A DNA stretch of 64,000 nucleotides. It comes from Elusimicrobia bacterium RIFCSPLOWO2_02_FULL_39_32. GTDB taxonomy: Bacteria; Elusimicrobiota; Elusimicrobia; 2-02-FULL-39-32. The notes beneath the pieces are model-generated. The model had not been told where the DNA came from and did no database searches. It saw nothing but the letters and a program-made list of their open reading frames with translations. Below are positions 7,941-55,196 of this stretch, piece after piece (the stretch's first letter is position 1; each line of letters starts with the position of its first letter). The DNA lies in contig MGUU01000002.1 in assembly GCA_001800135.1 (NCBI GenBank), forward strand, positions 2,388 to 66,387. The letters are read 5' to 3'. Position numbers and translations under genes: made by a program.

Positions 7941-7967
7941 AAGCGCTGGTCCTGGAGGCCATTTTTC

Positions 7968-30449: not shown

Positions 30450-32966
30450 ATGACTGAAGAGATTAAAAATTCCACTATTTTTTATAAACCTAATTTAGAG
30501 ACATGGGGAAAAAATGAGTTTCAGTTTTTTTTAGATGGCGATTCACCCAACTGGATCGCTGTAGATGAGAGAGGATCCCAGATTCTTCAATGGGTGAATG
30601 GGCAAAGGAACTTTGGTGAGATCCTGCGACTCTACAGCCAAACTCAAATGTTTGATTTTGCAAAATCCTGGCTCCATTGTCACACTTTTCTAAAAGAGGC
30701 ATTGCAGCGAGGGATTATTTCTCTCCAACCTTTTGAAACATCCCCCTATCTAGGCAGAAGCCATTATCTTAAAACCGAAAAGCTAAAAGAATTTTGGATT
30801 CATTTAACTCAAACCTGCAACCTCGCCTGCACCCATTGTTTGGTTTCTTCCGGCCCCCAAGGAGAGAAAGGAATGAATACAGAATTTTATATCCGCGCCA
30901 TTGACGAAACTAGCGGTTTAGGCGTTGAACGCTATTACTTTACCGGCGGGGAACCTTTCGCTCGTCCGGATATTTTTGAACTTATTCGATATACAACAGA
31001 AACAAAACAAAAAGAATTAATTATTCTAACGAATGCAACCCTTTTTACCAATGCGCGGATTGAACAGCTTAAAAAACTGAGTCGAGAAAAAGTGAAATTT
31101 CAGGTGAGCATAGATGGAACGACTGCTCTAACAAACAATGCTATCCGGGGAACAGGTGTTTTTGAAAAGGCATGTCAGGGACTACGCGCCTTAAGCGAAC
31201 TTAGGTTTGAAACTTCTTTAACTGCCGTGGTCACAAAAAAGAATATAAAGGAACTAGAAAACTTGCCCAAGCTTGCCAAGGAACTGGGAGCCAAATCTAT
31301 TCACCTCATGTGGCTCCATAAAAGAGGCCGAATTTTGGAATCTGCGGATTCTTCTTTTCCAACCACAGCGGAACTTTTGCATTTGGCAAAAAGTGTAAAG
31401 CTCTCCTCAGAAAATTTAGGAATTGTTTTTGATAATATGGAATCTCTTAAACTTCGTATAAACGGTCAACCTAATGTTAAATACGATTTAGGAATGATGG
31501 GTTGGGAAAGTTTGTGCCTCTATCTCAATGGGGAGCTCTATCCTTCTGCTGCAATGGCTGGTCACACGGATTTAACTCTTGGCGCTCTCAATGGCAAAAC
31601 AATTCAAGAGCTTTGGCTTAAAAGCGATTTAGCGGATCGCATCCGCAATTTAAGCGTGATTCAAAAAGTTTCAACCCTGAAGAATCCTTTTCAGTTTCTA
31701 ACAGGCGGCGGAGACATTGAACATAGTTATTTTTTCTCTGCCAATGGACAGCAAGGAAACTTTCTCGCGCCAGATCCTTATTACGAAATTTATGTTGAAC
31801 TGATAAAAGAGATCATGCTAGATTTAGCAGTTCAAAAAAAAGAAACGATTAATCAAAAATCTGGGTTCAATGCTCCAGTTATTTTCCATTCCATGGGAGA
31901 AGATGCTATCACTTGCAGTGAAGATGCTTTAGGCTGGTTAAATTCAAACGAATTGCCAACAGTGCGCTTGCTCCATTCTAACTGCGTCCTTTCCTTTGAT
32001 GTAGAAAAACCATATAAAGCGGTACAAAAATTTTATGGAAAAGCTGCTGAAAAACCGCAGGAAGAGCTTTGCTGCCCAATAAAATATGACGACCATGAGA
32101 TCAGCCACATTCCACAAGAGGTGCTTGATCGTTTTTATGGGTGCGGCTCCCCCATTTCCCTTTCTCAAGTAAAAGAAGGAGAAACAACTCTGGATCTAGG
32201 TTCTGGCGCTGGCATAGACTGTTTTATAGCGGCAAAAAAAGTAGGCGCTTTGGGAAAAGTGATTGGCATTGACATGACAGATCAAATGCTTGAAGTTGCA
32301 AATCGCTGCAAAGAAACAGTAACAAAAAATCTTGGGTACGATGTAGTGGAATTTAAAAAAGGGTATCTGGAAAAAATTCCTGCGCCAGACCGATCTATAG
32401 ACTTAGTCACTTCTAACTGCGTAATCAATTTATCCCCAAATAAAAAAAAGGTGTTTGCGGAAATTTGGCGCATCTTAAAAGATACCGGCCGTTTTGTGGT
32501 GGCAGATATAGTCTCTGACATATCTGTGCCAATTTCTCTGCAAGCTCACCAAGAGCTTTGGGGGGAGTGTATTTCCGGCTCTTTATCGGAAGATGAATTT
32601 CTCGCTCAGCTCCAAAAAGCGGGGTTCTACGGGATTTCGCTTCTAAAAAAAACATTCTGGAAAGAGGTGGAAGGCGTAAAGTTTTACTCCATCACAGTGC
32701 GCGGATTCAAATTTGAAAAAAAGGAAGGATGTAAATTTATAGGACAAAAAGCGATCTATCTTGGTCCCTACCAATCCATAATGGATGAAGAAGGTCACCT
32801 CTTCCCTCGTGGAGAAGCAGTAGAGATTTGCACAGATACCGCTGCCAAACTACAAGCAGAACCGTACATGAACCAATTTCATATTCTAGAGCCCAGAAAT
32901 CAAACAAAAATTAAATTTGAAGTTAAAGAGAACAGTTCAAACTGTTGTGGTCCAAGCTGCTGCTGA
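30450..32966 (+). CDS. Fusion protein: PqqD-like (RRE) domain, then radical SAM domain, then ArsM-type As(III) S-adenosylmethionine methyltransferase with a Cys-rich tail
   Basis: N-terminus [27 protein letters not shown] is PqqD-like. CNLACTHC is a radical SAM cluster motif. The C-terminal half aligns to ArsM ([40 protein letters not shown]). All four As-binding Cys equivalents are present: LCCP, GCGSP, SNCV, WGECISG. It ends NCCGPSCC. Confidence 0.8.
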
Positions 32967-36941: not shown

Positions 36942-37665
36942 ATTTTTTATTTATGCTGTTGGGGTATTCCTAGCGGGATTCTTTGGGAATGAAAGAGTAT
37001 ATGCAGAATTTGTGATTGATCGTTTTTCTTCTCAAACCGAAAGTAACGGAATTCCCAAGGGTTGGGAAGAGCTTACATTTAAAAAAATCCCAAACCATAC
37101 CCGATATACGGTAGTTCAAGAAGGAAACAATTTTGTTCTTCAAGCGGTAAGTAGAAACTCTTCTTCCGGAATCCTAAAAAAAGTACCTCTAAATCCGAAA
37201 GATTATCCCATTCTTAAATGGCAGTGGAAAGTGGAAAATATCTTAAGCAAAGCAGACGCAAAGAAAAAGTCCGGAGACGATTATCCTGCTCGAATTTATG
37301 TGGCGTTTAAATATGACCCAACCCAAGCGAGCCTGTTAGAAAAAGCAAAATATGGGACGGTGAAAAAACTTTACGGAGAATATCCTCCTCAAGGAGCTTT
37401 AAACTACATTTGGGATAACCGGCTTCCTGTTGGAACCGCTCTGGATAACGCCTACACAGACCGGGCGAAAATGATCGTGGTAGAGAGCGGGCGAGACAAA
37501 ATAGGACAGTGGGTTTCCGAAGAAAAAAATATTTATGAAGATTACAAAAGGATATTCGGTTCCGAACCCCCGGAAATAGAATTTATTGCCGTTATGAGCG
37601 ATACCGATAACACGGAAGATTTCGCTGTGGCTTACTTTGATAACATTGTTTTGGAGAATAAATGA
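36931..37665 (+). CDS. DUF3047-family secreted protein
   Basis: Signal peptide. Conserved YPARIYVAF / NYIWDN blocks. Confidence 0.55.
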
Positions 37666-38366
37666 AAAATAAATTAAATTCCACACTTAAAGGGATCATT
37701 GTTTTTAGCGCAATAGCTCTTTTAATTGTTGCCGCAAATAAATTCAATGTTCAAGAGCTTTTAAAAAATTCTTTAGACAAAATTCAAGAGCTTGGGATAT
37801 TAGGAATAGGACTCTTTATTCTCATTTATCTTCTAGCTTGCGTTTTGTTTCTCCCGGGTTCTATTTTAACTCTGGGAGCAGGAGCGATCTTTGGTGTCAT
37901 CAAAGGTTCCGTTATTGTTTCTTTGAGTTCTACCCTTGGAGCCACTTGCACTTTTCTTATTGGAAGGTATCTTGTAAGACATTGGGTGGAATCTAAAATT
38001 GAAGGGAACCCAAAATTTAAAGCCGTGGACGAAGCTGTGGCAAAAGAGGGGTGGAAAATTGTGGGGCTCACCCGTCTATCTCCTATCTTTCCATTTAATC
38101 TGCTTAACTACGCCTATGGGGTAACCAAGGTAACGATACGGGATTATATTCTTGCATCCTGGATCGGCATGATGCCGGGAACGGTAATGTACGTTTATAT
38201 CGGTTCTCTCGCAGGAGACATAGCCACACTTGGGTCAAGAGCAACCACCGGAGCCGTGAGTTCGGTACAGTGGACAATAAGAATTATAGGATTCATTGCC
38301 ACAGTGCTTGTGACAGTTTATGTAACGCGAGTAGCCAAGAAAGCCCTCAATGAAAAAATTTCTTGA
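37662..38366 (+). CDS. DedA / TVP38-TMEM64 family membrane protein
   Basis: VLFLPGSILTLGAGAIFG motif. Confidence 0.8.
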   Translation: MKNKLNSTLKGIIVFSAIALLIVAANKFNVQELLKNSLDKIQELGILGIGLFILIYLLACVLFLPGSILTLGAGAIFGVIKGSVIVSLSSTLGATCTFLIGRYLVRHWVESKIEGNPKFKAVDEAVAKEGWKIVGLTRLSPIFPFNLLNYAYGVTKVTIRDYILASWIGMMPGTVMYVYIGSLAGDIATLGSRATTGAVSSVQWTIRIIGFIATVLVTVYVTRVAKKALNEKIS

Positions 38367-38416: not shown

Positions 38417-39955
38417 ATGCCATTAACTAAAGATATTGTAACCATCCCCCCCATGGACAAGCACAACCAAACCCTTGTTTCCAACGTGCATCCATCCAAC
38501 TGGGAAAATCCAACCCCTACAGAAGTCTATAACTTAGTTGTGATTGGAGGAGGTACTGCCGGGCTGGTTACCGCGATTGGGGCAGCAGGTCTGGGAGCAA
38601 AGGTAGCCCTCATAGAAAAACATTTAATGGGCGGAGACTGCTTAAACGTGGGCTGCGTTCCTTCTAAGGCGATAATTCGTTCTTCCCGAGTAGTCGCAGA
38701 AATTCGTGAAGCCTCTTCCTATGGAGTCCGAGTTCCGGATGGGACCGAAGCTAACTTTGCAGCAGTCATGGAGCGGGTGCGTAAGCTCCGAGCTGGCATT
38801 AGCCACCACGACTCTGCGGAAAGATATAAAAATTTAGGTATAGATGTATTTCTTGGGGAAGCGCAATTTAAAACAAGTTATAGCGTTGAAGTAAACGGAA
38901 AAATTCTAAAATTTAAGAAGGCGGTTATTGCCACCGGAGCCAGAGCCGCTCACCCACCTATTCCGGGACTTCCAGAAGCGGGGTTTCTTACTAACGAAAC
39001 TGTTTTCAATCTTACCTCTCTACCAAAAAGATTTCTCATTGTTGGCGCAGGTCCCATCGGCTGTGAGTTAGCCCAAGCATTTAGTCGTTTAGGATCCGAA
39101 GTCCATCTTTTTGAGGCGATGCATGGATTTCTTCCCAGAGAGGATCAGGATGCGGCAGGAATTTTAAAGAATGGTTTTGATAAAGAGAAAATCCATTCCC
39201 TTTGCTGCTGCAATATTTTAAAGGTAGAAAAGCGCGGGATGGAAAAGATTGTACATTTCACGGCGAAACACGAGGGGGAAAAACCTCAAGAAATTGCGGT
39301 AGATGAAATTTTGATTGGGGTAGGACGAATTCCTAATGTAACCGGTTTGAACCTTGAAACCGTCGGAGTAAAATATGATTCGAAGTCCGGAGTTCAAACG
39401 AACGATTATCTCCAAACGACCAACCCCAACATTTATGCCGCCGGTGACATCTGTCTTAAATATAAGTTTACTCACACTGCGGATGCAACAGCTCGCATTG
39501 TGATACAAAATGCTCTTTTCTTTAACAGTAAAAAAGTAAGTTCTCTAATTGTTCCCTGGTGCACTTACACAGACCCGGAAATCGCGCACGTTGGTCTCTA
39601 TGAACAGGAAGCGAAAGAAAAGGGAATTGAAGTTGAAACTTTTACGCGTGAATTTAAAGAAGTGGACCGAGCGATCCTAGACGGAGAAACAGAAGGCTTT
39701 GTGAAAGTGCATGTAAAAAAAGGGACAGATACAATTCTGGGATCCACGATTGTTTCCCGCCACGCGGGAGACATGATTAGCGAAATCACTTTAGCGATGA
39801 CCGCAAAAGTGGGGCTAGGAACCATTGCAAACGCAATTCATCCTTACCCAACACAAGCCGAAGCGATTAAACAGGTTGCAGATGCCTACAATCGTACCCG
39901 ACTCACCCCAACCATTAAAAAAATAATTTCCAATTGGCTTGTCTGGAGAAGGTAG
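38417..39955 (+). CDS. FAD-dependent pyridine nucleotide-disulfide oxidoreductase (class I; dihydrolipoamide dehydrogenase / MerA-like core without the C-terminal Cys pair)
   Basis: GGGTAGLVTA FAD motif. Redox disulfide GGDCLNVGCVPSK. NAD motif and dimerisation domain. RBS AAGGAGG precedes the ATG at 38417. Confidence 0.8.
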   Translation: MPLTKDIVTIPPMDKHNQTLVSNVHPSNWENPTPTEVYNLVVIGGGTAGLVTAIGAAGLGAKVALIEKHLMGGDCLNVGCVPSKAIIRSSRVVAEIREASSYGVRVPDGTEANFAAVMERVRKLRAGISHHDSAERYKNLGIDVFLGEAQFKTSYSVEVNGKILKFKKAVIATGARAAHPPIPGLPEAGFLTNETVFNLTSLPKRFLIVGAGPIGCELAQAFSRLGSEVHLFEAMHGFLPREDQDAAGILKNGFDKEKIHSLCCCNILKVEKRGMEKIVHFTAKHEGEKPQEIAVDEILIGVGRIPNVTGLNLETVGVKYDSKSGVQTNDYLQTTNPNIYAAGDICLKYKFTHTADATARIVIQNALFFNSKKVSSLIVPWCTYTDPEIAHVGLYEQEAKEKGIEVETFTREFKEVDRAILDGETEGFVKVHVKKGTDTILGSTIVSRHAGDMISEITLAMTAKVGLGTIANAIHPYPTQAEAIKQVADAYNRTRLTPTIKKIISNWLVWRR

Positions 39956-43136: not shown

Positions 43137-43168
43137 TTGACTCTATACCATAGTATAGGGTTTATACT
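43137..43168 (+). promoter_or_regulatory. MerR-type promoter: -35 TTGACT, a 20-bp spacer containing the dyad CTATAC-CATA-GTATAG, then -10 TATACT
   Basis: The long spacer carries a perfect 6-bp inverted repeat between -35 and -10, as in MerR-family operators. It lies 24 nt upstream of the merR ATG. Confidence 0.55.
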
Positions 43169-43191
43169 TTAACTGGCGCTATCCTACTTTT

Positions 43192-43611
43192 ATGAATGAA
43201 CTAACCATTGGACAAATTGCAAAAAAGGCTGACGTAAACGTTCAAACGATCTATTTCTATGAACGTAAGAACTTAGTAACGCCCGTGAAACGAAGGGATA
43301 CGGCTATTTCTCATTCTGGTTATAGGATTTATAGTGAAGCAGAGGTTCAAAAAATCCGGTTTATTAAAAACGCGCAAGAGCTTGGATTTAGCCTAAAAGA
43401 AATTTCCGAATTACTTCACTTGCGTATTTCTACAAAAGCTCAGTGTGGTCTGGTTCAGTTAAAAGCTGAAAAAAAACTTAAAAGCATTGAGGAAAAATTG
43501 AAATCTTTAAGTCAGTTAAAAAAAGTTCTAGGAAATTTACTGAATGTTTGCAGGAATCGTAAAACTACAGATGCTTGTCCTATTTTAAAAAGTTTACAAA
43601 AAAGGAGGTGA
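43192..43611 (+). CDS. merR: MerR-family transcriptional regulator with Hg(II)-type metal-binding cysteines
   Basis: N-terminal HTH. Cys85, Cys120 and Cys129 give spacings of 35 and 9, identical to the spacing of the three metal-binding cysteines in canonical MerR. Confidence 0.85.
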   Translation: MNELTIGQIAKKADVNVQTIYFYERKNLVTPVKRRDTAISHSGYRIYSEAEVQKIRFIKNAQELGFSLKEISELLHLRISTKAQCGLVQLKAEKKLKSIEEKLKSLSQLKKVLGNLLNVCRNRKTTDACPILKSLQKRR

Positions 43612-43617
43612 AATAAA

Positions 43618-43740
43618 ATGAAACAGATCATGATAGTTCTGGGATTGCTAACCTTAGTAAGCGGAGGGATTTGGGCATATTCCACTTTAGGTAATGTTTG
43701 CTGCGGCAACCCTTCAGCGCTGTGCTGCCCTTTAAAATAA
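43618..43740 (+). CDS. Unannotated 40-aa single-TM peptide with a CC-x6-CC tail (MKQIMIVLGLLTLVSGGIWAYSTLGNVCCGNPSALCCPLK)
   Basis: AGGAGG RBS 9 nt upstream. Located between merR and merTP. Below the 60-aa cutoff of the ORF track. Confidence 0.55.
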   Translation: MKQIMIVLGLLTLVSGGIWAYSTLGNVCCGNPSALCCPLK

Positions 43741-43754
43741 GGAAGTTTTCTAAA

Positions 43755-44336
43755 ATGAAAAAAATATTTCTTGCAGCGGGAGCAGTTGTATCCTCAGCTC
43801 TGGCGTCGGTCTGTTGTCTAGGACCTATCGTTCTTTTAGGCTTAGGAGTGGGGGGTGTTGGTTTTGCGGCTGTGTTAGCAAAATATCGTCCTCTCTTTTT
43901 AGGTTTGACTTCAATTCTTTTAGGGATTGCATTCTATCTAACCTATAGAAAAAGAGAAGTTGCTTGCGAAGATGGCAGCTGTGAACTTCAATCAGGAAGT
44001 AAACCTATGAAGAGGGCTTTATGGATTGTTACAGTTGCAGCGCTTGGATTCGCTACGTTCCCCAACTGGTCCACTTTTGCTTTGAAAAGAGCTCCTCCGG
44101 TTGAGCAATCAAATATGGAAACTATTCGATTATCCATTGCCGGCATGAGCTGTACCGCCTGCGCTGTGAGCATACAGAAGTCCCTCAAGAAAGTGCCGGG
44201 CGTGGAGATTGCATCCGTAGATTTCGAAAAGTCCGAAGCTGTGGTTCAAATTCACCCGGGAAAAATCGAAAATGATGCGTTGATTCGAGCTGTTCAAACA
44301 GCCGGCAGCTATACAGCAAAAATAAAAGAGAATTAA
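43755..44336 (+). CDS. merT: MerT-MerP fusion: mercuric-ion transport membrane protein fused to an HMA metallochaperone domain
   Basis: ALASVCCLGPIVLLGLG and KYRPLFLG match MerT TM1/TM2. A second Cys pair (CEDGSC) is present. The C-terminal HMA domain carries GMSCTAC. Confidence 0.85.
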   Translation: MKKIFLAAGAVVSSALASVCCLGPIVLLGLGVGGVGFAAVLAKYRPLFLGLTSILLGIAFYLTYRKREVACEDGSCELQSGSKPMKRALWIVTVAALGFATFPNWSTFALKRAPPVEQSNMETIRLSIAGMSCTACAVSIQKSLKKVPGVEIASVDFEKSEAVVQIHPGKIENDALIRAVQTAGSYTAKIKEN

Positions 44337-44347
44337 GGAGAAACTCT

Positions 44348-44815
44348 ATGTCTCAACCCATTCAGTCTCATGAAGAATGCTGCAAGATATCAACCACTTT
44401 ATGCCCCTGCCCAGTCTGCGGGAATATGGGAAGGAGAGTGACGCCTCGAACTCTAGACAACCATGTGCCAAGCCCTTTGAGAGAATCAATAGGAGATGAT
44501 GCCACTTTCTGTACGAATCCTGACTGCAAAGTTGTTTATTGCAATCCCAAAAAGATGGTGGTTCTAAGGGGCGAAACCAAATTCCCTGTAACCATTAAGG
44601 ACTCTGGAGATGATGTGTACGTCTGCTACTGTTTCCAACATAAACGCAGAGATCTGCGGCGGGATCTTAAAGAAAAAGGAACCACAGATATTCCAGATAG
44701 AATCCGAAAGTGCGTTAAAGAGGGTATGTGCGATTGCGAACGTAAAAATCCACAGGGAGCCTGCTGTTTAGGAAACATGACTAACGCCATTAAAAGCATC
44801 CAAGAGGGACGTTAG
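44348..44815 (+). CDS. Cysteine-rich (14 Cys) putative metal-binding protein
   Basis: CC, CPCPVC, CTNPDC, CYC, CDC and ACC motifs. No recognised family. Confidence 0.55.
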   Translation: MSQPIQSHEECCKISTTLCPCPVCGNMGRRVTPRTLDNHVPSPLRESIGDDATFCTNPDCKVVYCNPKKMVVLRGETKFPVTIKDSGDDVYVCYCFQHKRRDLRRDLKEKGTTDIPDRIRKCVKEGMCDCERKNPQGACCLGNMTNAIKSIQEGR

Positions 44816-44823
44816 TTATTTAA

Positions 44824-47199
44824 GTGCAATTTTTAATAATTAAAAATCGTTTTATTTTCATAGGAGCTGTTTTTTTTGTAGGATTGTTCTGGAACTTATC
44901 TTCCAACAATCATGGAAATGGTAAAGACAATCCTGTGAAAACCAATACAGCAAACCTCCTCATTCACGAAAAAAGTCCATACCTTTTACAGCATGCCTAT
45001 AACCCAGTGAATTGGTATCCTTGGGGAGAGGACGCGTTTAAAAAAGCAAGAAAAGAAAACAAACCTATTTTTCTCTCTATTGGCTATGCAACTTGCCACT
45101 GGTGTCATGTGATGGAAAAAGAATCTTTTTCAAATCCAGAGATCGCAGCTGTGATGAACGAACACTTTGTATCCATCAAGGTGGATCGTGAAGAAAGACC
45201 GGATGTGGACAAGATTTACATGACCGCAGCTCATGCCGCAGGATGGGGAGGCGGCTGGCCTTTATCCATGTGGCTTACTCCAGAATTAAAACCATTCTTT
45301 GGTGGCACCTACTTCCCTCCCAATGAGCGCTGGGGCAATCCAGGATTTAAACAAATCTTGCTCCGACTCTCTGAACTATGGAAGACAAAACAAAAAGATA
45401 TAGCCTTAAATGCTGATCGCATGGAACAAGAATTAAAACAATATTCTCAGGTAGAGGGTAGATTTGGCGCGCTTGATACAGAATCTTTGGATAAAGGATT
45501 TGCTGCCTTTAAAGGAGACTTTGTGCCCTCTAAAGGTGGGTTTGGTGGAGCGCCGAAGTTTCCCATGCCAGTTAACCAAAACTTTCTATTGCGTACCTAT
45601 GCAAGAAGCAAGGAGAAAAAAGCGTTAGAAATGATCACGCATACGCTGCATGAAATTTCAAAAGGAGGGATCTACGACCAGATCGGTGGAGGTTTTCATC
45701 GCTATTCCACTGATGAAAACTGGCATATTCCCCACTTTGAAAAGATGCTTTATGACAATGCGCAACTGACAATGAACTATCTTGAAGCCTATCAAATCAC
45801 CAAAGAAAAAGAATTTGCCAGAATTGCCCGGGAAACTTTAGATTATATCTTGCGTGACATGACTCATAGAGAGGGAGGGTTTTATTCCGCAGAAGATGCG
45901 GATAGCCTGCCGACCGAGTTTCAGCGACAGGAGGCGTCGCAGACGCACTCAGCGAAGCAGTCCCCTTTGGGGGCTCGTCCTTTAGGAGGAAGTGCCGTCT
46001 CCAAAGATGTTATAGGCAAGCGGCCGACCGAGTTGAAAGGTAAAATTGAAGATACTAGCCATGAACATGGTTCCGAAGGCGCTTTCTATATCTGGGAAAA
46101 AAGAGAGATTATGGAAATTTTAGGAAAGGAATCTGGTGAAATCTTCAGCTACCGATATGGCGTAGAAGAGAATGGTAACGCCAAGTCCGATCCACAGGGT
46201 GAATTCATAAATAAAAACATTCTTTACCTTGCTCATTCTATTGGAGAAACAGCTAAAAAATTTGGAAAAAAAGAAGAGGAAATCCAAAAAGTTTTAGATG
46301 AATCTAGAGATAAACTTTTGTCCGTGCGTTCTAAACGTCCTAGACCACAACTGGATGATAAAATTCTAGTGGATTGGAACGGACTAATGATTTCAGCTTT
46401 TGCTAAAGCAGCTCAAGTGTTGGCTGACCCAGAATATCTAAAAGCTGCAGAGAAAGCCGCGCTTTTTCTAAAAAACCATCTCTATGATGATAAAGACAAT
46501 CGTCTTTATCATCGCTGGAGGGAAGGAGATAGAAATATTCCTGCTTTATCCTTAGATTATGCGCTTTTAACCCAAGGAGTTATTGATCTCTACGAAACAT
46601 CCCTAAATGTAGAATGGCTCATATGGGCAATTGAACTAACAGAAACAGAAATCAAACTTTTTTATGACAAAGAAAAAGGTGGATTCTTTATGACCAGTCC
46701 TGATCATGATAAGAACCTCCTTGTGCGAGCCATGGATGATACAGACAATGTTATTCCTTCAGAAAGTTCTGTGACTGCTCTTAATCTTTTGCGCTTGTCG
46801 CAATTTACTAGTCAAGAGGAGTATCGAAAAGCAGCAGAAAAAACCCTTATGCGATTTGGAGCCCAGATGAAACAACAACCCAGATCTCTCCCACAAATGT
46901 TAGTGGCCCTAGATTATGCGCTATCTAAACCAAAAGAAATTATTATAGCAGGCGATCCAAAATCAGCTGATACAATTAAAATGGTGCAGGAGGTTCATCG
47001 TCGATTTATTCCCAACAAGATCCTCATGGTTATAGATGAAGGAAAAAATCGTGAATCCCTAACTCATTTTTTACCATTTCTGGAAGGGATTAGACGTATT
47101 AAGGGGAAGTCCACAGCCTATGTCTGCATCAATTACGCCTGTGAGCTGCCAACCAATGATCTTCAAATATTGCAAAAAATATTGGATGAAAATCGCTAA
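44824..47199 (+). CDS. Thioredoxin-domain (DUF255) protein with a C-terminal six-hairpin glycosidase-like domain (YyaL/SSP411-like)
   Basis: [20 protein letters not shown] motif. Contains a low-complexity insertion. Confidence 0.8.
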
Positions 47200-47201
47200 A
47201 A

Positions 47202-47471
47202 TTATGCCGCTCGAAGATCGCTTTTAGCCTCATATAAATCTATTGCATTTTGCAGGTTCATCCAAAATTCAGGGGTTGTTTTAAGTATTTTAGACAAAAG
47301 AATCGCAGTTTCTGCAGTAACGCCTCTCTTTCCATTAATGAGGGTATTAATCCGCTGAATTGGAATATTCATTCGCCTTGCTAACTCAAGCTGGCTCATT
47401 CCCATGGGTTTAAGGAACTCAATTAAAAGTATTTCACCGGGATGAGTGGGTCTTCTCTGTTTTGGAATCAT
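47202..47471 (-). CDS. higA: HigA-family antitoxin (XRE HTH)
   Basis: HTH_XRE. Position downstream of higB. Confidence 0.8.
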   Translation of the reverse strand: MIPKQRRPTHPGEILLIEFLKPMGMSQLELARRMNIPIQRINTLINGKRGVTAETAILLSKILKTTPEFWMNLQNAIDLYEAKSDLRAA

Positions 47472-47481
47472 GTCAATTCTC

Positions 47482-47775
47482 CTAATCGTGATAATCTAAA
47501 ATTCTAACACCGTCGATATTGTTGTTCATCCATTTAAAGACAATTCGATATTGATCGTTGATTCGAATGCTATAGAATCCTTTCATGTTTCCCTTGAGGA
47601 GTTCGAGTCTGTTTCCCGGAGGAGCAAGCAAATCCTGTAAGGCATGCGCTGTATTAATCATATCAAGTTTTCTTGTAGCAACTTTCCAAAGCTGCAAAGG
47701 AATCCTTCTTGCCTCTTTAGAGTTGATTCCATGGTAGATATCTTCAGTTGTCTTGTCTCCAAAGCTCGTAATCAC
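47482..47775 (-). CDS. higB: HigB-family toxin (RelE/ParE superfamily)
   Basis: 97 aa plasmid-maintenance killer-like protein. Toxin-first order. Confidence 0.75.
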   Translation of the reverse strand: MITSFGDKTTEDIYHGINSKEARRIPLQLWKVATRKLDMINTAHALQDLLAPPGNRLELLKGNMKGFYSIRINDQYRIVFKWMNNNIDGVRILDYHD

Positions 47776-47846: not shown

Positions 47847-50800
47847 TTAGGCTTGCTGCTTATAGAGCTGGGATATTTTTTGTTCTTCATCCTTAGAAGG
47901 CGGTTCCAGTGGAACTCCTTGGATGGTCAGACGATCTCCTATAATTTCCACTCCTCGTTCCCCCTTTAAGCCCTCTGCCCAGTCTCTTAACCCTGAATTC
48001 CTTGCCCCCATCTCTATTAAGCTTAAGCTCACTTCTTCACTAATATCTAGAACTTGCGGAATCAAAATCTTGATATTCCATTCTTGAGCCTCTTTTCCTA
48101 AAAGGTTTGTCCATACCATTGAACTCTTCTCTGTGGTAACAATCCTTAAGGAGAAAGATTCGATCATGGCTATTCTCTTTAACTCAATCACCGCTTCTTC
48201 CGCGCTTTCTAAAATAGCTATTCTCCCCCTTATGCCCAATGCTTTTTCTATCTCTCCAATGGCTGCGCCATTCTTATTCACAAAAAGATACTGAACTTTC
48301 TTAAATGGATGCTTCTTTTTCTCTTCTTCAATCTGCTGAATGGTTCTTAATTGCAGTAAACGATCGTTCTCAGTCTTTGCGCTCTTAAAATCTATCAGAC
48401 AAATCTCTATCTGATTCACCTCTGCGCTCCAAAATTGAAAAACTTTATCTAGCGCAGAGGAATAAGAGAATTCGGTTTGCAATAGAAGTTCCTTAATCTT
48501 ATCTGTTGAATCCCCCAAAGCTTGGGCTACTTGTACAATTCCTTGAAGGTTAGGATTGATTCCCCTTTCAATTCCAGCAAAAGTTTTTGAAACATTCGTA
48601 AGGTAATGAACGATTACGGAAGCAGCTAAGAGTAGAGGAAATGAAATCCAGAAGGGAACAGGAATAATTAGTTGGATAATACCTAAAAGCAAGTTGATGC
48701 GAGCGATCTTTTTTGCAGATTCAAGAAATTGTGGTGGAGCACGGGAATCAAAACGATTAGCGATCCATTCTTTGTGACCTTCCACAAATACGCGCACACT
48801 AGAAAAGAAAGAGACTTGCAGCGCTACTTGAAAATTGCTCCCTGTCAAAATATAAGTTAAAAGCCCGATAGACAACGCACTCAAGCCAAAAGAGATCACA
48901 TCCTCTAACAACGCCCACTTCCGATTGTACTCCTCTAGGGTAAGATCAGGGAAGAAATGTTTTCTAAGCAACTTATATAACCATAACCAGTTGCCGCCAC
49001 CAGAAAAGTCATCAGCGTGATTAGAAGGAAATTCTCCTAATATTTGTTGTATTCTGACCGACTCTACAAGGAATGCGGCATGTGGATAGCTATTTTTAAT
49101 TTCGTCGCATATTTTTGAATAAAGATCATTTTGAGGGGTGTAAATATCAACAGAACTTACTCGCTGAGTCATCACTACATTATTGATCACATCAGCAAAA
49201 AATCTGGCTAGAATTCTCATCTCCCAAGATAAAAGGCGGGATGGAACATTAAATGAAAAAGTGTGAGTATTATCATTAGCGTGAATCAATATTGTTATTT
49301 TTTCATTTTGATCTGGAATCGCTGACTCTGTCAACCTTCTTCCCACATCCACTATGTTTCCAGACTTTTCTACAACGCTAATTGGAAGCGGGCTTCGCCT
49401 GCCATATTTTATCGCCTCATCAATCTCATGAATTTTGGTTTCTAAATCATTGAGACCATCTGGTCCCAATGTTCTAAACGACCACACGCCCAAATTTTCT
49501 GCTGGCTCAACATCTTTTAAATAATCATTCCCAACATAAACAATTTGACTGGGACTCACTCCAAGCGCTGCCAAGACCCTTTCATAAAAAATTGGTTCTG
49601 GTTTAGAGGCTTTTACCCGATCTCTGGTAATAAGAAGCGACGGATCAAAACATTCCTCAATGCCAATGATTTGCAATATTCTTTTAACCACCTCTTTGCC
49701 ACTATTAGTTGCTATCGCTAAAGTATAACCCTGTTGTTTAAGATGGTCTAAGAACTCTTTTAGCTTTGGATTAGGCTTTATCAAATCGAACGGCATATGC
49801 TTCAGTTCTCCTATTTCTTTTCCTCCCCAACTGATGCTGAATTCAAGGGATAATTGGTTGCTGCTTACCGCGCCTTTGTTTGAAAGCTCATCACTTTTAT
49901 TTTGGATTACCTCTCTGGCTGTTTCGATTGAGACATTATTTCTTTCAGCATAGGTTCGTACAAGCGCTTCCCTATACATAGCCTCGAACTCTGGAGCATG
50001 GTAAAGAGTTCCATCCAAATCAAATAAAATCAATTTAATTTTTTCATTGCTGCTGGAATGTGTGTCGGTTCTATCCTGAACTTGACCTTGCGCTTTAGTT
50101 TTTGACTCTTTTAGGAGGGCACGAACAGGAGGATGATTGGAGATACCATCAGCAAGGCTTGCTAGGATTGTGCCGCCGGCAGTGGTACGCTGAATAGCAG
50201 GGTTTAACTCGCGGCCACCCCAATCCTTTTCACGAACCTCATTCACAGCCTTGAGCATATCACCACCAACCAGAAAGACTGGAACTCCGGCTCCCCTTGC
50301 TTTCTCTAGTTTTTCTAAAAGTTGCCGTGTGGCTGTACGCCCGTCATTCCGTTCAAAAACTCCAGTACCGCCATTGGCGATAATCCAGCCATCGCCATTA
50401 TTTTTATGGCGCTCTATGATCTTATCAATCTCTACAAGTATTACATCCAGTGTCTTAGAACCAATGTCTATCGCTTTTTGCTCAATACCAATCCGATCGA
50501 CAAGTTCTGCTGTGTCCTCGTCCCGCACAATGACTCTATGATCTATAGGTAACAATAACTTCATATCGTTCTCTTGCGCTCTCTCTCTAATTTTGGAAAT
50601 AGCTTTTTCAACCTTGAGCGCCGCTTCCCCCTTTGGCAGCCTTGACTTACCTATGGACTGATCTGCCTGTTTAAGGAAAGGATATGCTAAGGCTCCTACA
50701 ACGACCATGATATCCCCAGCATGTTGTTGCCCACTCGACACATATTTGAGCAAATGTTTGTATATCTTATCTGGTTTAGTTCCTCCCCAAATAATAAGTC

Positions 50801-53800
50801 CTGCACCACGAGCTTCCGCTTCAAACTCAAGCTTTTTGTTGACTTCTTTAACAAATGAAATTCCAGCTGCCCGTGCCTCTACAGGAAAATGGTTTACCAT
50901 TCGCACTGTTGCATCCGTGTTGTGACTTTCTATCGCCTCATTAATATAAGCTGCAGGATGACCTAATGCGTTAAGAAGTCGTTCAATAAATTTGTCCTGA
51001 TCTTCAGGAATCGGCTGTGAACCAGAATAATAACTGCTCTCCTCTGGATAGAAACGGCTGTTGGGTAACATAAAGACAATCTTTTTATTTTGATATACCT
51101 TACGCGCAGATTCAATGGCAGCGGGAATTGCGTCAATATCTTCTGGAAGCATAACGATTCCAGCGTCAATGCCTATTTCCATCATACGCTTTTCGGCTAT
51201 TGGAAGCACTCTTCTTTCAACATCAAACTTCTCTCGCGTAACGGAATCATCAAGCTCTTCTTTACTGGGTCGTCCAAGATGGGTACAGATAAAAAGTTCG
51301 TCAAATTTTTCTAAGGCACTTTTAACGGTTTCCACAGTCTGCACGATCTTTGTATCCCCATCTCCCGGATCCTCTCCAATATCCCAGTTAATCTTGAGAA
51401 ATGCAGATATCCCATCAGGTAAATCCTCTATGGTTCGTATTGCCCCGGACTGATCAGATGATGTAAGAAAAATCTTTTCTGATTCTGGAGCTGGAGACGG
51501 TTCGTATGCGTCACCTCCGCCACTGCTTGTGCCAGATATTTGATGAGGACCATGATCCTTTGGTAAATTCTTGTCTAACCCCCGACTCTTTATTTCATTC
51601 TGATAATTCATCCGCCCTAAAGTGAGCGCCATGGAAATCTTAAGATTGACATCTTTTGTTTCATTCAGCCATTCAATAAGCATATCCTTATTGAATAAAT
51701 AATTCCCGCGTTCCGTTTGTATAACTTCAAATTCATCCCACGCGGGCACAATATTTCGTACTTCTAAAACTTGATCTTCACGATCCTTGAATAATTTTTC
51801 AGATTCATGGATGATGGACTCTTCAATGGATTCACCCTTAGTCTTAGCCAAAAATTCTGGACCCCACTTAGGTTTTACAAGTTCCTTAGCGGAAATTTTT
51901 CCGGTTTCCGCTAGATTTAAATTGTTATCTGCGGCATTAGCAGTGCTATTTTCTTGAAACCGCCTCATGAGATACTTGAGCGCCTTCTCGATTCCTCCCT
52001 TGATGACAAAAGGCACATAAGAATAGACGCGGGGAAGAGCCTTATCTTCTCCCCAAAAAAATCTAAAAATTTCCTGAAGAGCTCGTTTCAAATTTTCCGT
52101 CATTCCAAACAAGGATTGAAATTCCAAATGTTGTGGATCCACATCCAATTTCTTTGCCCACAATAGAGCGCTTACAATAGTTCTCGCATCATGACTGGCG
52201 ATCCCGATTCTTTGGATGAGTTTATGTTTTCTAAATAATAGTCGCACTATTTCCAAATAGTTTTCGTCGGTTTTCCAATTTCCCATCCAAACAGGAATTG
52301 GATCACCACGCTCTTCTGCATCGCGAACCTCCTGCGAATGATAAGCTCCCTTAACAGGACGGATGGCGATAGGCATTGGATCCTCAGGATCCTTTTCCAT
52401 CCAGTTTATGAGCCCCTCAACTTCAGCCAATGAATCTACAAAATAGGCTTGTACCACCATCCCGACGTCCGGAATACGCCTGCCGTTTTCTCGCACCATC
52501 TTCAAATTTGGATCTAACTGATTTTCAAGCTCTTCCAGAACAGTCTGGATTACTTCATTAGCAACATCACGATAAATGTACTCTTCTTTATCAACCCAGA
52601 CAATTGCTCCCATCTGTCCTGCTCTTTTAACTTCACGCACTTTTGCCACTATCTTTTTGTAATTCTGAACAGCCAAATTGAATCCTTCTCTTCTCACAGA
52701 TTCAACTTCACTATCCAGCCAACTTTGCGGTGTAAGATTAGTTACCTTTGAGGAAATATTAGGTTCTAGACCATAGGACGCCATTTTTTCAATAAGATCC
52801 ACACAAGCTTGAGCATTTTCCATAGCTTCTTGTTCCGTATGAATTCCTTCACCCAAAATGTCTGCTATAGATAAAACAGGTCTGGACTCGGACTTCCCAT
52901 CTCTTACAACCCGTATCCCTTTAGCCGCCATTTCTCGTATAACTTTTTCTACCGCCTTTTCTTGTGAGAGATTTTTCATGGATTTAAGTGCTTCATCCTC
53001 AGTGTCTCCCACAATATACTGCGCTGTCATAAAAAACAATAACTTGCGCAGCCATTCCTTAAAAATTTCCGGTGTCCTATCAGACTGGATGATTTTATCA
53101 GCCAAATCTACACTCCCAGTTAAGAGTTTTGCAAACCAAGGGGTGGGGTACATTTTTAAAATGAACTTTGTGATTCCGTTTCTTAAGAGCTCTAGTACAT
53201 TTAAGTTCCGTTCTCTTTCTTGTCGGATTAATTTGGATGCTTCCACGAGTCTTTCTGTCTCACGAACGATTTCAGACTCCGGTATTCCCCATCCGCTATT
53301 ATCCTCTTCTATCTCGTCTCCATTTTGGAAATGCGTTTGGGGTTTACTAGGTTGAAAACGGGGACGTTTCACATTTCCCTCTAAATTAGAAACGTCCTTG
53401 TTTTTCCTTAATATGTCACTCAAGTCTGTTGGGCCCAGAGCAAAAAATAGATTGGCGAGGATCGCCGCAACTGCTGTAGGTATGGTTAGCCAGTGAAATC
53501 CAGCCACTGCAAAGATGGCCACAGCCGCAACTAAATTTGCATAAATGCCTGAACTTCCATGAGCTCCCGGAACTGTTAAGCGAAAACCCAAAACCTTTTG
53601 CAAACCCGGCGGCCAATCATCAAAAGCAATCACGCCTTTTGTGTCAAACTTGGGCCAACTCCATTCTTTAAATGGTTTTTTCCAGTTGACCTCAATCATG
53701 TGGCCAACCTCATTGATAACAATGGCAAGAAAAACAGCGGAAATTGCGCTGCCCCAAAGAGAATTAGCGTCAACTACAATGCCGAAAAATCCTGCTAAAA

Positions 53801-55196
53801 CGATCGCGGATAGATAAGTAACGACTGGAACAACAAATGGAAGAGCAATTAGATCGCTCGCATTTTCCAAATGAGCTTTGTCCGGATCATATTCGCCGAT
53901 CACTCTCATATTGACCCGTGTGGGATCTACTAAGATTTCTGATAATTTATCATGGGATCCTTTAGAGTAAAGATATTCTTTTACAATTCCTCTAATCCCC
54001 CATTTCTCTATATCAAGCGATTTAAAAGTTTCATTAAACGATATGAGTTCGAACAAATGCTGGATTGGATCCCAAGCTAACCAAGTAACCGGGGCGGGAG
54101 GATTACTTTTTTCATCGAACCATTGCCGACGAAAATGCTCTACAACCCTTTCCCTCCCAATTTTCAATACTTCTTTTAGCGATCCATAAAAGGTTCTTTC
54201 TAATATTTGCCCTGGCACAAGAGGGTGTCTCCTACTCCCAAAATGGTAAGCCACAACTCTTTCCCCACGATACAAGCGATTAAGCAATTCCTCTTCTGAT
54301 TTAATCTCTTCCATTCTAATTAATGGAGCGCTGGCAAGTGATTCCTGGGGTATGGATTTAAGAGATAGTTCGACTTCATAAAGATACGCCGCTTTAAATG
54401 CCCGCGGATAAAAAAATATAGAACGTGCCCGTGAGAGAGGAGTTCTCACATTAGGTGAAAGTTCTGGAGACATGTTAGAATTAAGTGAGGTGTCTCCAAT
54501 CTTTCTACCGCCTGACTTGCCATCTTTCTTTCTTCCAGACATTGCGGATAAATGTGGACTTAAAACATTATCTTTTTTCTGTCTAAAGATGTTGGCTAAT
54601 GAGGAGGTTTTGGATCGGCTCTTCCTATTCATGGTCATTGCAACATAGAACTTACGCGCTTTTTTAACGCGTCGGTTCATGAGATTAGATAAATCAATGT
54701 TAACAGGTATAAGAGACGGGGTTTTCAAAAAAATCTGTCTCAAAAGTTCTAAGCTGTCTTCCCAATCTTGAGAGATCTTCTCTTCAACTTTGTAATAGCA
54801 TTGTACCGCGTAATCTAAAACTGTTTCAAAAATCTTCACTGATTTTTCACGGATCAGATCAAATTCCTCTTTTGCATTATTCAGAATAGAGTTAGAAAAT
54901 CCCATATTTCGGTCTAATGGCTGGAGATTAGAATTTTGAGGAATATATTTGTTAAGCACTACTTGCTGTTCCGTCGGTGATTTTACAGAAAGAGGTCTTC
55001 CCCGAAATTGAAAACTCTCGGCTTTGGAGGAAGAAGTTTGTTTGGCTTGGGCAAAGGGCGGGAGGATAATAGAAATCAACAAAGCGCCGACAACGACGAG
55101 CGCGGTGCTCTGTTTAAAAAACCTGATGATTTTTTTATTCCAAAAGTTGTGCATATCACGAACGCGCATTACGCGTATATAAAAATAATTATACAA
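47847..55196 (-). CDS. Giant (2449 aa) multidomain protein. Domain order: signal peptide, Ser/Lys-rich low complexity, TM bundle, proline-dehydrogenase-like TIM barrel, phosphoglycerate-kinase-like domain, HAD phosphatase, TM segments, C-terminal domain.
   Basis: Uninterrupted ORF. Signal peptide MHNFWNKKIIRFFKQSTALVVVGALLISIILPPFAQA, so the probable start is the internal ATG near 55154. PRODH signatures: RPVKGAY and YVPFVIKGGIEKALKYLMRRFQEN. PGK-like motifs: ICTHLGRPSKEE, NSRFYPEE, IANGGTGVFER, GGDMLKAV. HAD motif I: LILFDLDGTLY, followed by the YVGND motif. Confidence 0.8.
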   Translation of the reverse strand: MYNYFYIRVMRVRDMHNFWNKKIIRFFKQSTALVVVGALLISIILPPFAQAKQTSSSKAESFQFRGRPLSVKSPTEQQVVLNKYIPQNSNLQPLDRNMGFSNSILNNAKEEFDLIREKSVKIFETVLDYAVQCYYKVEEKISQDWEDSLELLRQIFLKTPSLIPVNIDLSNLMNRRVKKARKFYVAMTMNRKSRSKTSSLANIFRQKKDNVLSPHLSAMSGRKKDGKSGGRKIGDTSLNSNMSPELSPNVRTPLSRARSIFFYPRAFKAAYLYEVELSLKSIPQESLASAPLIRMEEIKSEEELLNRLYRGERVVAYHFGSRRHPLVPGQILERTFYGSLKEVLKIGRERVVEHFRRQWFDEKSNPPAPVTWLAWDPIQHLFELISFNETFKSLDIEKWGIRGIVKEYLYSKGSHDKLSEILVDPTRVNMRVIGEYDPDKAHLENASDLIALPFVVPVVTYLSAIVLAGFFGIVVDANSLWGSAISAVFLAIVINEVGHMIEVNWKKPFKEWSWPKFDTKGVIAFDDWPPGLQKVLGFRLTVPGAHGSSGIYANLVAAVAIFAVAGFHWLTIPTAVAAILANLFFALGPTDLSDILRKNKDVSNLEGNVKRPRFQPSKPQTHFQNGDEIEEDNSGWGIPESEIVRETERLVEASKLIRQERERNLNVLELLRNGITKFILKMYPTPWFAKLLTGSVDLADKIIQSDRTPEIFKEWLRKLLFFMTAQYIVGDTEDEALKSMKNLSQEKAVEKVIREMAAKGIRVVRDGKSESRPVLSIADILGEGIHTEQEAMENAQACVDLIEKMASYGLEPNISSKVTNLTPQSWLDSEVESVRREGFNLAVQNYKKIVAKVREVKRAGQMGAIVWVDKEEYIYRDVANEVIQTVLEELENQLDPNLKMVRENGRRIPDVGMVVQAYFVDSLAEVEGLINWMEKDPEDPMPIAIRPVKGAYHSQEVRDAEERGDPIPVWMGNWKTDENYLEIVRLLFRKHKLIQRIGIASHDARTIVSALLWAKKLDVDPQHLEFQSLFGMTENLKRALQEIFRFFWGEDKALPRVYSYVPFVIKGGIEKALKYLMRRFQENSTANAADNNLNLAETGKISAKELVKPKWGPEFLAKTKGESIEESIIHESEKLFKDREDQVLEVRNIVPAWDEFEVIQTERGNYLFNKDMLIEWLNETKDVNLKISMALTLGRMNYQNEIKSRGLDKNLPKDHGPHQISGTSSGGGDAYEPSPAPESEKIFLTSSDQSGAIRTIEDLPDGISAFLKINWDIGEDPGDGDTKIVQTVETVKSALEKFDELFICTHLGRPSKEELDDSVTREKFDVERRVLPIAEKRMMEIGIDAGIVMLPEDIDAIPAAIESARKVYQNKKIVFMLPNSRFYPEESSYYSGSQPIPEDQDKFIERLLNALGHPAAYINEAIESHNTDATVRMVNHFPVEARAAGISFVKEVNKKLEFEAEARGAGLIIWGGTKPDKIYKHLLKYVSSGQQHAGDIMVVVGALAYPFLKQADQSIGKSRLPKGEAALKVEKAISKIRERAQENDMKLLLPIDHRVIVRDEDTAELVDRIGIEQKAIDIGSKTLDVILVEIDKIIERHKNNGDGWIIANGGTGVFERNDGRTATRQLLEKLEKARGAGVPVFLVGGDMLKAVNEVREKDWGGRELNPAIQRTTAGGTILASLADGISNHPPVRALLKESKTKAQGQVQDRTDTHSSSNEKIKLILFDLDGTLYHAPEFEAMYREALVRTYAERNNVSIETAREVIQNKSDELSNKGAVSSNQLSLEFSISWGGKEIGELKHMPFDLIKPNPKLKEFLDHLKQQGYTLAIATNSGKEVVKRILQIIGIEECFDPSLLITRDRVKASKPEPIFYERVLAALGVSPSQIVYVGNDYLKDVEPAENLGVWSFRTLGPDGLNDLETKIHEIDEAIKYGRRSPLPISVVEKSGNIVDVGRRLTESAIPDQNEKITILIHANDNTHTFSFNVPSRLLSWEMRILARFFADVINNVVMTQRVSSVDIYTPQNDLYSKICDEIKNSYPHAAFLVESVRIQQILGEFPSNHADDFSGGGNWLWLYKLLRKHFFPDLTLEEYNRKWALLEDVISFGLSALSIGLLTYILTGSNFQVALQVSFFSSVRVFVEGHKEWIANRFDSRAPPQFLESAKKIARINLLLGIIQLIIPVPFWISFPLLLAASVIVHYLTNVSKTFAGIERGINPNLQGIVQVAQALGDSTDKIKELLLQTEFSYSSALDKVFQFWSAEVNQIEICLIDFKSAKTENDRLLQLRTIQQIEEEKKKHPFKKVQYLFVNKNGAAIGEIEKALGIRGRIAILESAEEAVIELKRIAMIESFSLRIVTTEKSSMVWTNLLGKEAQEWNIKILIPQVLDISEEVSLSLIEMGARNSGLRDWAEGLKGERGVEIIGDRLTIQGVPLEPPSKDEEQKISQLYKQQA

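Follow-up and report, generated by a model that had tools for sequence, protein, structure and literature searches.

A variant mer-type operon without merA, encoding a CopZ N-terminal-like protein and a four-cysteine microprotein, in an Elusimicrobia genome

The 64,000-nucleotide stretch of DNA analysed here (the window) derives from Elusimicrobia bacterium RIFCSPLOWO2_02_FULL_39_32 (metagenome-assembled genome, assembly GCA_001800135.1, contig MGUU01000002.1, positions 2,388 to 66,387 of the forward strand), and contains five same-strand open reading frames (ORFs) packed behind a MerR-type promoter with intergenic gaps of 6-14 bp. With moderate confidence, the locus is interpreted as a variant of the mer operon, merR-pep40-merTP-copZN, expressed from a firmicute-type MerR promoter, in which Hg(II) would be routed via the transporter MerTP to the cytosolic Cys-rich protein CopZN. 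A preliminary description made from the sequence had listed the merR promoter, merR, a 40-aa peptide, a merT-merP fusion, a Cys-rich protein and a DUF255 protein, and all were found at the positions given there:

43137..43168 (+): MerR-type promoter/operator, as read from the sequence
43137-43142 (+): promoter -35 element, TTGACT
43163-43168 (+): promoter -10 element, TATACT, at a 20-bp spacer from the -35 element
43140-43161 (+): operator, 9-4-9 dyad ACTCTATAC-CATA-GTATAGGGT inside the 20-bp spacer
43192..43611 (+): merR, first gene of the operon, MerR-family metal sensor of 139 aa
43618..43740 (+): pep40, 40-aa microprotein with ribosome-binding site (RBS) AGGAGGTG; four-Cys tail peptide, YSTLGNVCCGNPSALCCPLK
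43755..44336 (+): merTP, MerT permease with C-terminal MerP-like HMA domain (PF02411 + PF00403)
44348..44815 (+): copZN, CopZ N-terminal-like cytosolic protein of 155 aa (PF18423, NF047645)
44824..47199 (+): DUF255, thioredoxin-like domain and alpha/alpha-barrel (PF03190)

Identical loci were present in contig MGUN01000014.1 of assembly GCA_001799945.1 and in several metagenomes. The unit ends at 47199, because the genes beyond, a HigBA pair, are located on the opposite strand; the HigB-like toxin and its helix-turn-helix antitoxin (47202-47775, -) lie directly 3′ of the operon.

The operator conforms to the MerR type, that is, a GTAC-core palindrome with a 4-bp centre in a 19/20-bp spacer, with ATAC/GTAT instead of GTAC at its core, and its right arm agrees with the firmicute consensus GTACAGGGT at 8/9 positions. 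The dyad fits the firmicute MerR signal (ACCGTGTAC-(4)-GTACAGGGT within a spacer of 20 bp) but none of those described for ZntR, CadR or PbrR (PMC1526738). By scanning one genome per species, 122 stretches encoding CopZN relatives were obtained and 80 loci were analysed; in 30/80 of these, with GC contents of 38-70%, a merO-like promoter was retained nearly base for base upstream of merR. When CTATAC-N4-GTATAG was searched for with at most 2 mismatches, only positions 43143-43158 matched, and no second MerR operator was found in the window, including upstream of the VTT-flavoprotein genes described below. A standard promoter scan allows spacers of 16-18 bp only, and thus misses this promoter and labels the dyad as 'terminator-like'.

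The MerR protein comprises the Pfam domains MerR_1 and MerR-DNA-bind and has exactly three cysteines, Cys85, Cys120 and Cys129 (C-x34-C-x8-C), which align with C82, C117 and C126 of Tn501 MerR (5CRL, 4UA1). Identity to characterised MerRs is only about 35-45%, and among solved structures the best matches were Tn501 MerR (5CRL, 94.9 bits) and Bacillus megaterium MerR (74.9 bits), followed by PbrR691 (65.9), CadR (61.7) and CueR (ca. 55). The motif C...C-x8-CPIL was retained in all cassette-linked MerRs. In Brevibacillus and Paenibacillus loci L056, L050 and L064, regulators 79-84% identical to B. megaterium MerR are encoded directly upstream of CopZN, and those of L056 and L050 exceeded the cutoff of TIGR02051, the Hg regulator model (183 and 177.5 bits against 150.85), with the downstream CopZN reaching 127.7 bits for NF047645; in these three loci, neither MerT nor MerA was found within 10 kb of the merR-CopZN pair. 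According to RefSeq/PGAP annotation, an 'Hg(II)-responsive transcriptional regulator' adjoins a '(2Fe-2S)-binding protein' on Stenotrophomonas and Peribacillus plasmids, and in Stanieria a MerR-MerF-CopZN-methyltransferase unit is annotated in RefSeq.

MerTP carries the MerT domain (PF02411, 59.2 bits, cutoff 32.9) together with the cysteine pairs of that family, CC at residues 20-21 within the first transmembrane (TM) segment (4-22), and Cys71/Cys76 in the loop between TM2 and TM3. The HMA domain (PF00403, 43.2 bits) is MerP-like, with GMSCTAC at residues 131-137 (Cys133/Cys136). Against NF033556 (MerTP_fusion) the protein reached 106.6 bits, under the cutoff of 180, the architecture being the same and the sequence divergent.

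CopZN contains 15 cysteines in its 155 residues, one more than had been counted in the preliminary description, which also took the protein to be novel. Family cutoffs, ligand cysteines, C-terminal CC motif and fold place it in the CopZ N-terminal Zn/[2Fe-2S] family: PF18423 (zf_CopZ) matched with 49.5 bits (cutoff 28.4), NF047645 (CopZ_Nterm_CC, 'putative iron-sulfur cluster-binding metallochaperone') with 103.1 bits (cutoff 100), and the N-terminal Zn/[2Fe-2S] domain of Archaeoglobus fulgidus CopZ (PDB 2HU9) with an E-value of 1.8e-12 by sequence and, for the AlphaFold model (pLDDT 87.4), with a Foldseek TM-score of 0.80 and an E-value of 3e-8. A Zn(Cys)4 site is predicted at C21, C24, C55 and C60, and the predicted [2Fe-2S] ligands are C93, C95, C130 and C139/140. 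The ligand cysteines are conserved in relatives, as is an additional Cys128. Residues 1-16 were modelled with pLDDT below 50, and on this disordered N-terminal arm resides C11-C12, a pair kept in 24/24 stand-alone Elusimicrobia-type proteins and in 0/6 CopZN-MerT fusion proteins. CopZN may function as an acceptor, a sequestrant or a reductase.

The merR-merTP interval includes pep40, which was uncalled by gene callers in every identical contig and is preceded by the strong RBS AGGAGGTG. The peptide consists of one N-terminal hydrophobic helix (TM residues 4-20) and the C-terminal tail CCGNPSALCCPLK, with cysteines at positions 28, 29, 36 and 37. Relatives were recognised in L017, L087/L089, L100, L101 and P0244, with the consensus M[KR]K-hydrophobic helix with SGG[IV]W-...CCG[NE]P[STG]APCCP[LV][KR], and all five homologues with readable context were inside merT/copZN cassettes. 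The position of the gene varies: between merR and merT in the window and L100, 3′ of copZN in L017 and L101, and 5′ of a gene for a small MerT-like membrane protein with CC in L087/L089. Comparison of the 13-codon tail of the window with L017 gave 8 synonymous and 1 nonsynonymous codon differences, and comparison with L087 gave the same numbers. A generic scan of all sequence examined for a hydrophobic N-terminus combined with a C-terminal CC-x-CC returned the pep40 family alone. In protein databases, 5.8 billion clusters yielded only an identical copy, and a set of 1.84 billion representatives yielded three small relatives. In the closest relative, L007, a 116-bp indel bordered by a duplication of the RBS/start region accounts for the absence of the gene. 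On the basis of these sequence comparisons, pep40 is considered a genuine but rare accessory microprotein under purifying selection, confined to the cassettes; as a matter of speculation, it might capture metal for MerT at the periplasmic face. ORFs of about 60 aa starting with MNLNWFAAE... and ending in ACCxxxCC were observed a few kb from CopZN in Paenibacillus and Effusibacillus (L064 15914-16096; L065 956-1144, -; L076 6044-6223, -).

The gene order merR-merT(P)-copZN recurred in 21/23 Elusimicrobia-type loci, and adjacent MerR, adjacent MerT and the merO-like promoter were each found in 21 of the 23; for CopZN loci overall, MerR was adjacent in 34/80 and MerT in 33/80. Nearly all related merR-merT(P)-copZN loci lacked MerA within +/-10 kb. 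In Planctomycetota/Verrucomicrobiota (Planctomycetota, Phycisphaerales, Limisphaerales), single CopZN-MerT-HMA polypeptides were found, with zf_CopZ, MerT and HMA in one ORF in L041, L071 and L032. As predicted from sequence, such a fusion would set CopZN at the cytoplasmic N-terminus of MerT, which argues for direct cooperation of the two. An annotated 'merA: Mercuric reductase' in L091 (5965-7200, plasmid CP036351.1, Planctomycetes bacterium K2D) is only 412 aa long, which is also the length of the CopZN-MerT-HMA fusions of L041 and L071, and its N-terminal end matches CopZN; the name is probably a misannotation due to the HMA domain.

Compared with L007, which is about 90% identical in nucleotide sequence, the ratio of nonsynonymous to synonymous substitution rates (dN/dS) was 0.16 for merR, 0.17 for merTP and 0.11 for copZN, and the operon is thus not decaying. 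The synonymous rate itself (dS) was about three times higher for merTP and copZN (43755-44815) and for the flavoprotein gene (38417-39955), at 0.64-0.77, than for merR, DUF255 and galT (ca. 0.22), which suggests a mosaic or recombinant history of the metal genes.

These components can be arranged into a putative pathway. MerR bound to the dyad would activate the promoter with its 20-bp spacer when Cys85 and Cys120′/Cys129′ bind metal, most likely Hg(II), to judge by homology and the type of operator. In the periplasm, the HMA domain of MerTP would then capture the metal, possibly aided by the membrane-anchored four-Cys tail of pep40, and pass it to the CC pair of TM1 and onward to the Cys pair of the cytoplasmic loop, following the MerT/MerP paradigm. 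In the cytosol, CopZN would accept the metal from MerT, probably via its disordered Cys-Cys arm, as the CopZN-MerT-HMA fusions suggest, and may thereby stand in for NmerA and the C-terminal Cys pair of MerA. Final detoxification is not provided for in the operon as such; the metal may then be sequestered, be passed to a reductase encoded elsewhere (canonical MerA, as in L025) or to the MerA-like flavoprotein, or be reduced at the [2Fe-2S] cluster of CopZN itself.

Regulated import coupled to cytosolic binding, and not to reduction, is the principle of the pbr lead operon of Cupriavidus metallidurans, with PbrR, the importer PbrT and the binding protein PbrD. The argument that an Hg(II) importer without a reductase would be suicidal loses force in view of this precedent and of the selection acting on the cassette. 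PbrR has the same C-x34-C-x8-C spacing as the window MerR; the two systems differ in that PbrT and MerT represent different families, the window has no P-type ATPase/phosphatase, and its operator and regulator are closer to MerR. Since the MerA-less cassette recurs and shows dN/dS values of 0.11-0.17, the non-classical downstream handling proposed in the preliminary description is plausible.

Pfam and NCBIfam scans of the ORFs in the 64-kb window revealed neither MerA nor MerB, in agreement with the preliminary description, and the locus is accordingly not a classical mer locus, which includes merA. Among the entries listed in supplementary tables of the MerA survey, none was from Elusimicrobia, a weak indication against merA elsewhere in the genome. 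The only flavoprotein disulfide reductase of the window is encoded upstream of the operon, next to a membrane protein gene:

37662-38366 (+): VTT/DedA-type membrane protein
38363/38417-39955 (+): MerA-like flavoprotein disulfide reductase, in a separate transcription unit 3.2 kb upstream of the operon

This flavoprotein matched NF004991 with 827.8 bits (cutoff 620) and the MerA model TIGR02053 with 390 bits, under the cutoff of 454.45. The redox-active CxxxxC motif GGDCLNVGCVPSK (C207/C212 in RC607 numbering) was invariant in 121/121 family members, as was H-x-Y-P-T (HPYPT), which places a Tyr at the position of MerA Y605, where GR and LipDH have the catalytic His. Of the two tyrosines, Tyr264 and Tyr605, used as criteria for MerA (PMC8261052), the former is replaced by Ser. 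The protein ends in ...NWLVWRR, and the MerA C-terminal pair C628/C629 is missing, with CC in the last 15 residues in 0/121 relatives, as had been noted for the window protein in the preliminary description. The family is large (>8000 matches, 66-70% identity across phyla), and its members are often named 'mercuric reductase'. It also displays a conserved N-terminal D-x-HN-x2-LVSNVHP-x-DW-x-NP and C-terminal WLAW(T/R)R, and in some organisms the flavoprotein is fused to its VTT/DedA neighbour (P0216, 780 aa), which points to a function at the membrane.

The flavoprotein of this PRK06370.1-3 family, with its VTT/DedA partner, could be the missing reductase, with CopZN providing the mobile Cys-Cys arm in trans; we regard this as possible, though on balance unlikely. 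The preliminary description had set the protein aside for want of the C-terminal Cys pair, a dismissal that does not hold against its linkage to the cassette and its MerA-type Tyr at the Y605 position. Orthologues with at least 50% identity were located within about 11 kb of 10/42 MerR/MerT-linked and 0/38 unlinked loci (Fisher p = 0.0012), and in L037, L039, L041 and L071, which belong to other phyla, they directly adjoin the CopZN/MerT genes in the same direction; the invariant CxxxxC adds to the case. However, much of the co-localisation in Elusimicrobia may be inherited synteny, the far wider distribution and stronger conservation of the family, relative to the cassette, point to a housekeeping function, a MerR operator is absent upstream of the gene in the window, and both the Ser at the Y264 position and the TIGR02053 score (390 against 454) separate the protein from MerA. 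Other flavoprotein disulfide reductases adjoin CopZN in Halobacterium and on B. cereus plasmids, but these are of the His-type, LipDH-like, and represent another family.

A precedent exists in Synechocystis: Slr1849, a putative counterpart of the window protein that is 'MerA-like' and not counted as canonical MerA, is reported to reduce Hg(II) under MerR-like control (PMC8261052, PMC6741143). The MerR-like Slr0701 and Slr1849 likewise combine a MerR-type regulator with a non-canonical MerA-like flavoprotein at separate loci (PMC6741143, PMC8261052). Neither MerT/MerP nor CopZN is reported for Synechocystis, and in the window the flavoprotein gene is not preceded by a MerR box. Cyanobacterial members of the window flavoprotein family are named 'mercuric reductase' and share about 67% identity with it.

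The CopZN family is repeatedly associated with flavoprotein disulfide reductases and Cd efflux, on account of gene pairs on Halobacterium, B. cereus and Enterococcus plasmids. In L099 (4001-5826, Halobacterium plasmid), the CopZN homologue overlaps a His-type 'lpdA' gene 2 kb from merA-merB, and in plasmid loci L093 (3487-6405) and L092 (3427-6414) the orders are cadC-cadA-DLDH-transporter-CopZN in B. cereus and CadC-CadA-CopZN in Enterococcus.

Concerning the metal, the preliminary description had named a thiophilic substrate other than Hg(II) as one of two possibilities. Operator type, the pairing of true MerRs with copZN and the merA gene of L025 instead indicate Hg(II), which on these sequence-based grounds is the most likely effector, though not an established one. 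In the Elusimicrobia locus L025, canonical MerA (7262-8947, -) is encoded divergently from merO-merR-merTP-copZN; this protein, which terminates in SCCVE and is without an NmerA domain, reached 465.5 bits for TIGR02053 (cutoff 454.45). Two near-identical merO boxes were found in this locus (8972-9003 and 11146-11177, +).

The alternative that the cassette handles Cd(II), Pb(II), Zn(II), Cu or As(III), with CopZN as a general soft-metal chaperone or buffer for exporters, appears rather unlikely, yet several observations weigh for it and against an assignment to mercury. The window MerR had TIGR02051 as its top NCBIfam match with 123.4 bits, under the equivalog cutoff of 150.85, and scored 105 bits with the ZntR model. 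The C-x34-C-x8-C arrangement, cited in the preliminary description as that of Hg(II)-sensing MerR, is indeed present and aligned with the Hg ligands, but the lead sensor PbrR691 shows it as well in alignment, and therefore the spacing alone is not diagnostic of an Hg sensor. The second merO-like box of L025 precedes genes for a DF-family/MerC-like fusion and for a P1B-1 ATPase of the CopA type. On plasmids of Enterococcus and B. cereus, CopZN homologues come after CadC-CadA; others stand beside ars genes in L027, L055, L064, L068 and L076, or occur near CopA-type ATPases in L013 and L025, and given these contexts the family may be a general soft-metal protein. The copper chaperone CopZ of A. 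fulgidus is its founding member, and the neighbourhood in the window includes a radical-SAM-ArsM-like fusion and a PHO4 transporter. Among the 23 Elusimicrobia-type loci, L025 was the only one with canonical merA within 10 kb. Moreover, the hand-off from MerT to CopZN is read from gene order and fusion, and the Hg(II) assignment from sequence. Against the other metals stand the operator, which is a MerR signal and not that of ZntR, CadR or PbrR (PMC1526738), the Hg-type MerR structures as top matches, the equivalog-passing MerRs directly 5′ of CopZN, the canonical merA divergent from the cassette in L025, and a transporter of the MerT/MerF type.

In a bolder version of the mercury interpretation, CopZN, alone or with the flavoprotein, would act as terminal Hg(II) reductase in a MerR-inducible, MerA-independent pathway, and pep40 would be a new periplasmic or membrane microprotein for mercury capture. 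MerT would here deliver Hg(II) to the Cys-Cys arm, and electrons would arrive via the [2Fe-2S] cluster; we consider this doubtful. If it were true, the cassette would be a genetic basis of merA-independent Hg(II) reduction in anaerobes.

The last gene, DUF255, had been included among the operon components in the preliminary description, and is probably co-transcribed with the operon here. Its product is a thioredoxin-like protein (PF03190, Thioredox_DsbH, 255.1 bits, cutoff 27) with CHWC at residues 91-94 and an N-terminal membrane anchor (TM segment), and its gene follows copZN co-directionally at a distance of 8 bp without an intervening terminator. Only 3/80 loci, however, had DUF255 within 10 kb of CopZN, and the two adjoined in the window only. 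In L007, 6.4 kb separate copZN from DUF255, and encode a periplasmic CPFC-HMA protein, outer-membrane, DsrE-like, TlpA-like and transglutaminase-like proteins, CcdA and TlpA. At the junction in the window, copZN is joined by its 3′ end to the beginning of DUF255, with the C-terminus of copZN and the start codon of DUF255 rewritten. Because other Elusimicrobia loci likewise have HMA and outer-membrane protein genes 3′ of copZN, the adjacency in the window is ascribed to a secondary deletion. DUF255 would thus be a recent neighbour brought in by a deletion of about 6.4 kb, and its place as a conserved cassette component is not supported by the loci compared. It is very unlikely that DUF255 functions in the system, for example by keeping the periplasmic cysteines of HMA and pep40 reduced: the tight co-directional spacing, the anchor with its CHWC motif, and its position after CcdA and TlpA of a periplasmic reducing pathway in the same island of L007 would suit such a role, but the deletion scar and the rarity of the association contradict it.

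That the operon is instead a decaying remnant of a classical mer operon, non-functional or harmful after loss of merA, is highly improbable, since the 6.4-kb deletion after copZN, the 116-bp indel at pep40 and the Hg(II) hypersensitivity of Escherichia coli carrying MerT/MerP without MerA are outweighed by the low dN/dS values, by intact ORFs with all metal-ligand cysteines conserved, and by the MerA-less triad in 21/23 Elusimicrobia-type loci and its fused form in other phyla.

Elsewhere in the window, the gene of a PHO4-family transporter (29188-30297, +) precedes an 838-aa ORF (30450-32966, +) in which a radical-SAM/SPASM domain is joined to an ArsM-like methyltransferase; this fusion scored below ArsM family cutoffs and ends in NCCGPSCC. 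A PiT-like transporter and a large methyltransferase ORF, which cluster with these two proteins, were also present near the merR cassette in L008, L012, L016, L023, L026, L029 and L032, and the recurrent pair suggests a broader thiophilic metal(loid) island. Small class I S-adenosylmethionine-dependent methyltransferases adjoin copZN in the Elusimicrobia loci L009 (10912-11571), L011 (10414-11172) and L016 (4789-5391, -) and on the Stanieria plasmid L097 (4404-5036); these methyltransferases beside CopZN reached no specific NCBIfam family cutoff. Downstream of the operon, a giant ORF of 2449 aa (47847-55196, -) with proline dehydrogenase, phosphoglycerate kinase and HAD hydrolase domains and several hydrophobic segments has an unusual architecture.

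Vicinal-Cys motifs of the CCG(N)P type, said in the preliminary description to be shared by three proteins of the window, reflect a real enrichment of vicinal CC (9 in 5 proteins against about 2 expected), but not homology. In alignment, the CC of QGACCLGN in CopZN coincides with that in the [2Fe-2S] subdomain region of A. fulgidus CopZ-NT, and the tails of the ArsM-like protein and pep40 are both short terminal Cys clamps in unalignable context.

The closest known counterpart in layout is the Gram-positive mer operon (Bacillus RC607/B. megaterium), in which merR is likewise first and co-transcribed with transport genes, and which shares the firmicute-type 9-4-9 palindrome in a 20-bp spacer, the three-Cys MerR, the MerT-family importer and HMA. 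It differs by the presence of merA, as the window operon and the entire 64-kb window are without merA/merB, whereas in the window MerT and MerP are fused and a CopZ-NT-like protein and pep40 are added; neither of the latter, a CopZ-NT-like protein or a 40-aa four-Cys peptide, is included in published mer gene lists (PMC3466566). With A. fulgidus CopZ (2HU9), CopZN shares the CopZ-NT fold, the eight metal-ligand cysteines and the coupling to HMA. In the archaeal protein, CopZ-NT is fused to the HMA copper-chaperone domain, whereas in the window HMA is at the periplasmic end of MerT and CopZN is free-standing; CopZN has in addition the disordered N-terminal CC arm and the conserved Cys128, and is under an Hg-type MerR sensor and not part of a CopA system.

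Every large protein of the operon belongs to a named family, and databases already place MerR beside a '(2Fe-2S)-binding protein', so the finding is not categorically new. In the literature searched, the MerA-less merR-merT(P)-copZN cassette, its fusion forms, the link to the flavoprotein and the pep40 family appear to be undescribed, and no publication was found that links 'Copz family protein' with mercury, nor any on 'CopZ-NT'. Because surveys of mercury-resistance genes have taken merA as their anchor (PMC3466566, PMC8261052), a MerR-controlled MerT-CopZN cassette without merA would have escaped them. Which enzymatic site carries out merA-independent Hg(II) reduction under anaerobic conditions has yet to be settled (PMC12282025). 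The cassette occurs in Elusimicrobia, Planctomycetota and Verrucomicrobiota, and merR-copZN pairs occur in Paenibacillus/Brevibacillus chromosomes and on Peribacillus/Stenotrophomonas plasmids; this distribution argues for the mercury regulon having a so far unrecognised member in the CopZ-NT-type Fe-S proteins. The cassette would thus be a testable candidate for MerA-independent mercury handling, and adds a previously unannotated family of four-Cys microproteins.

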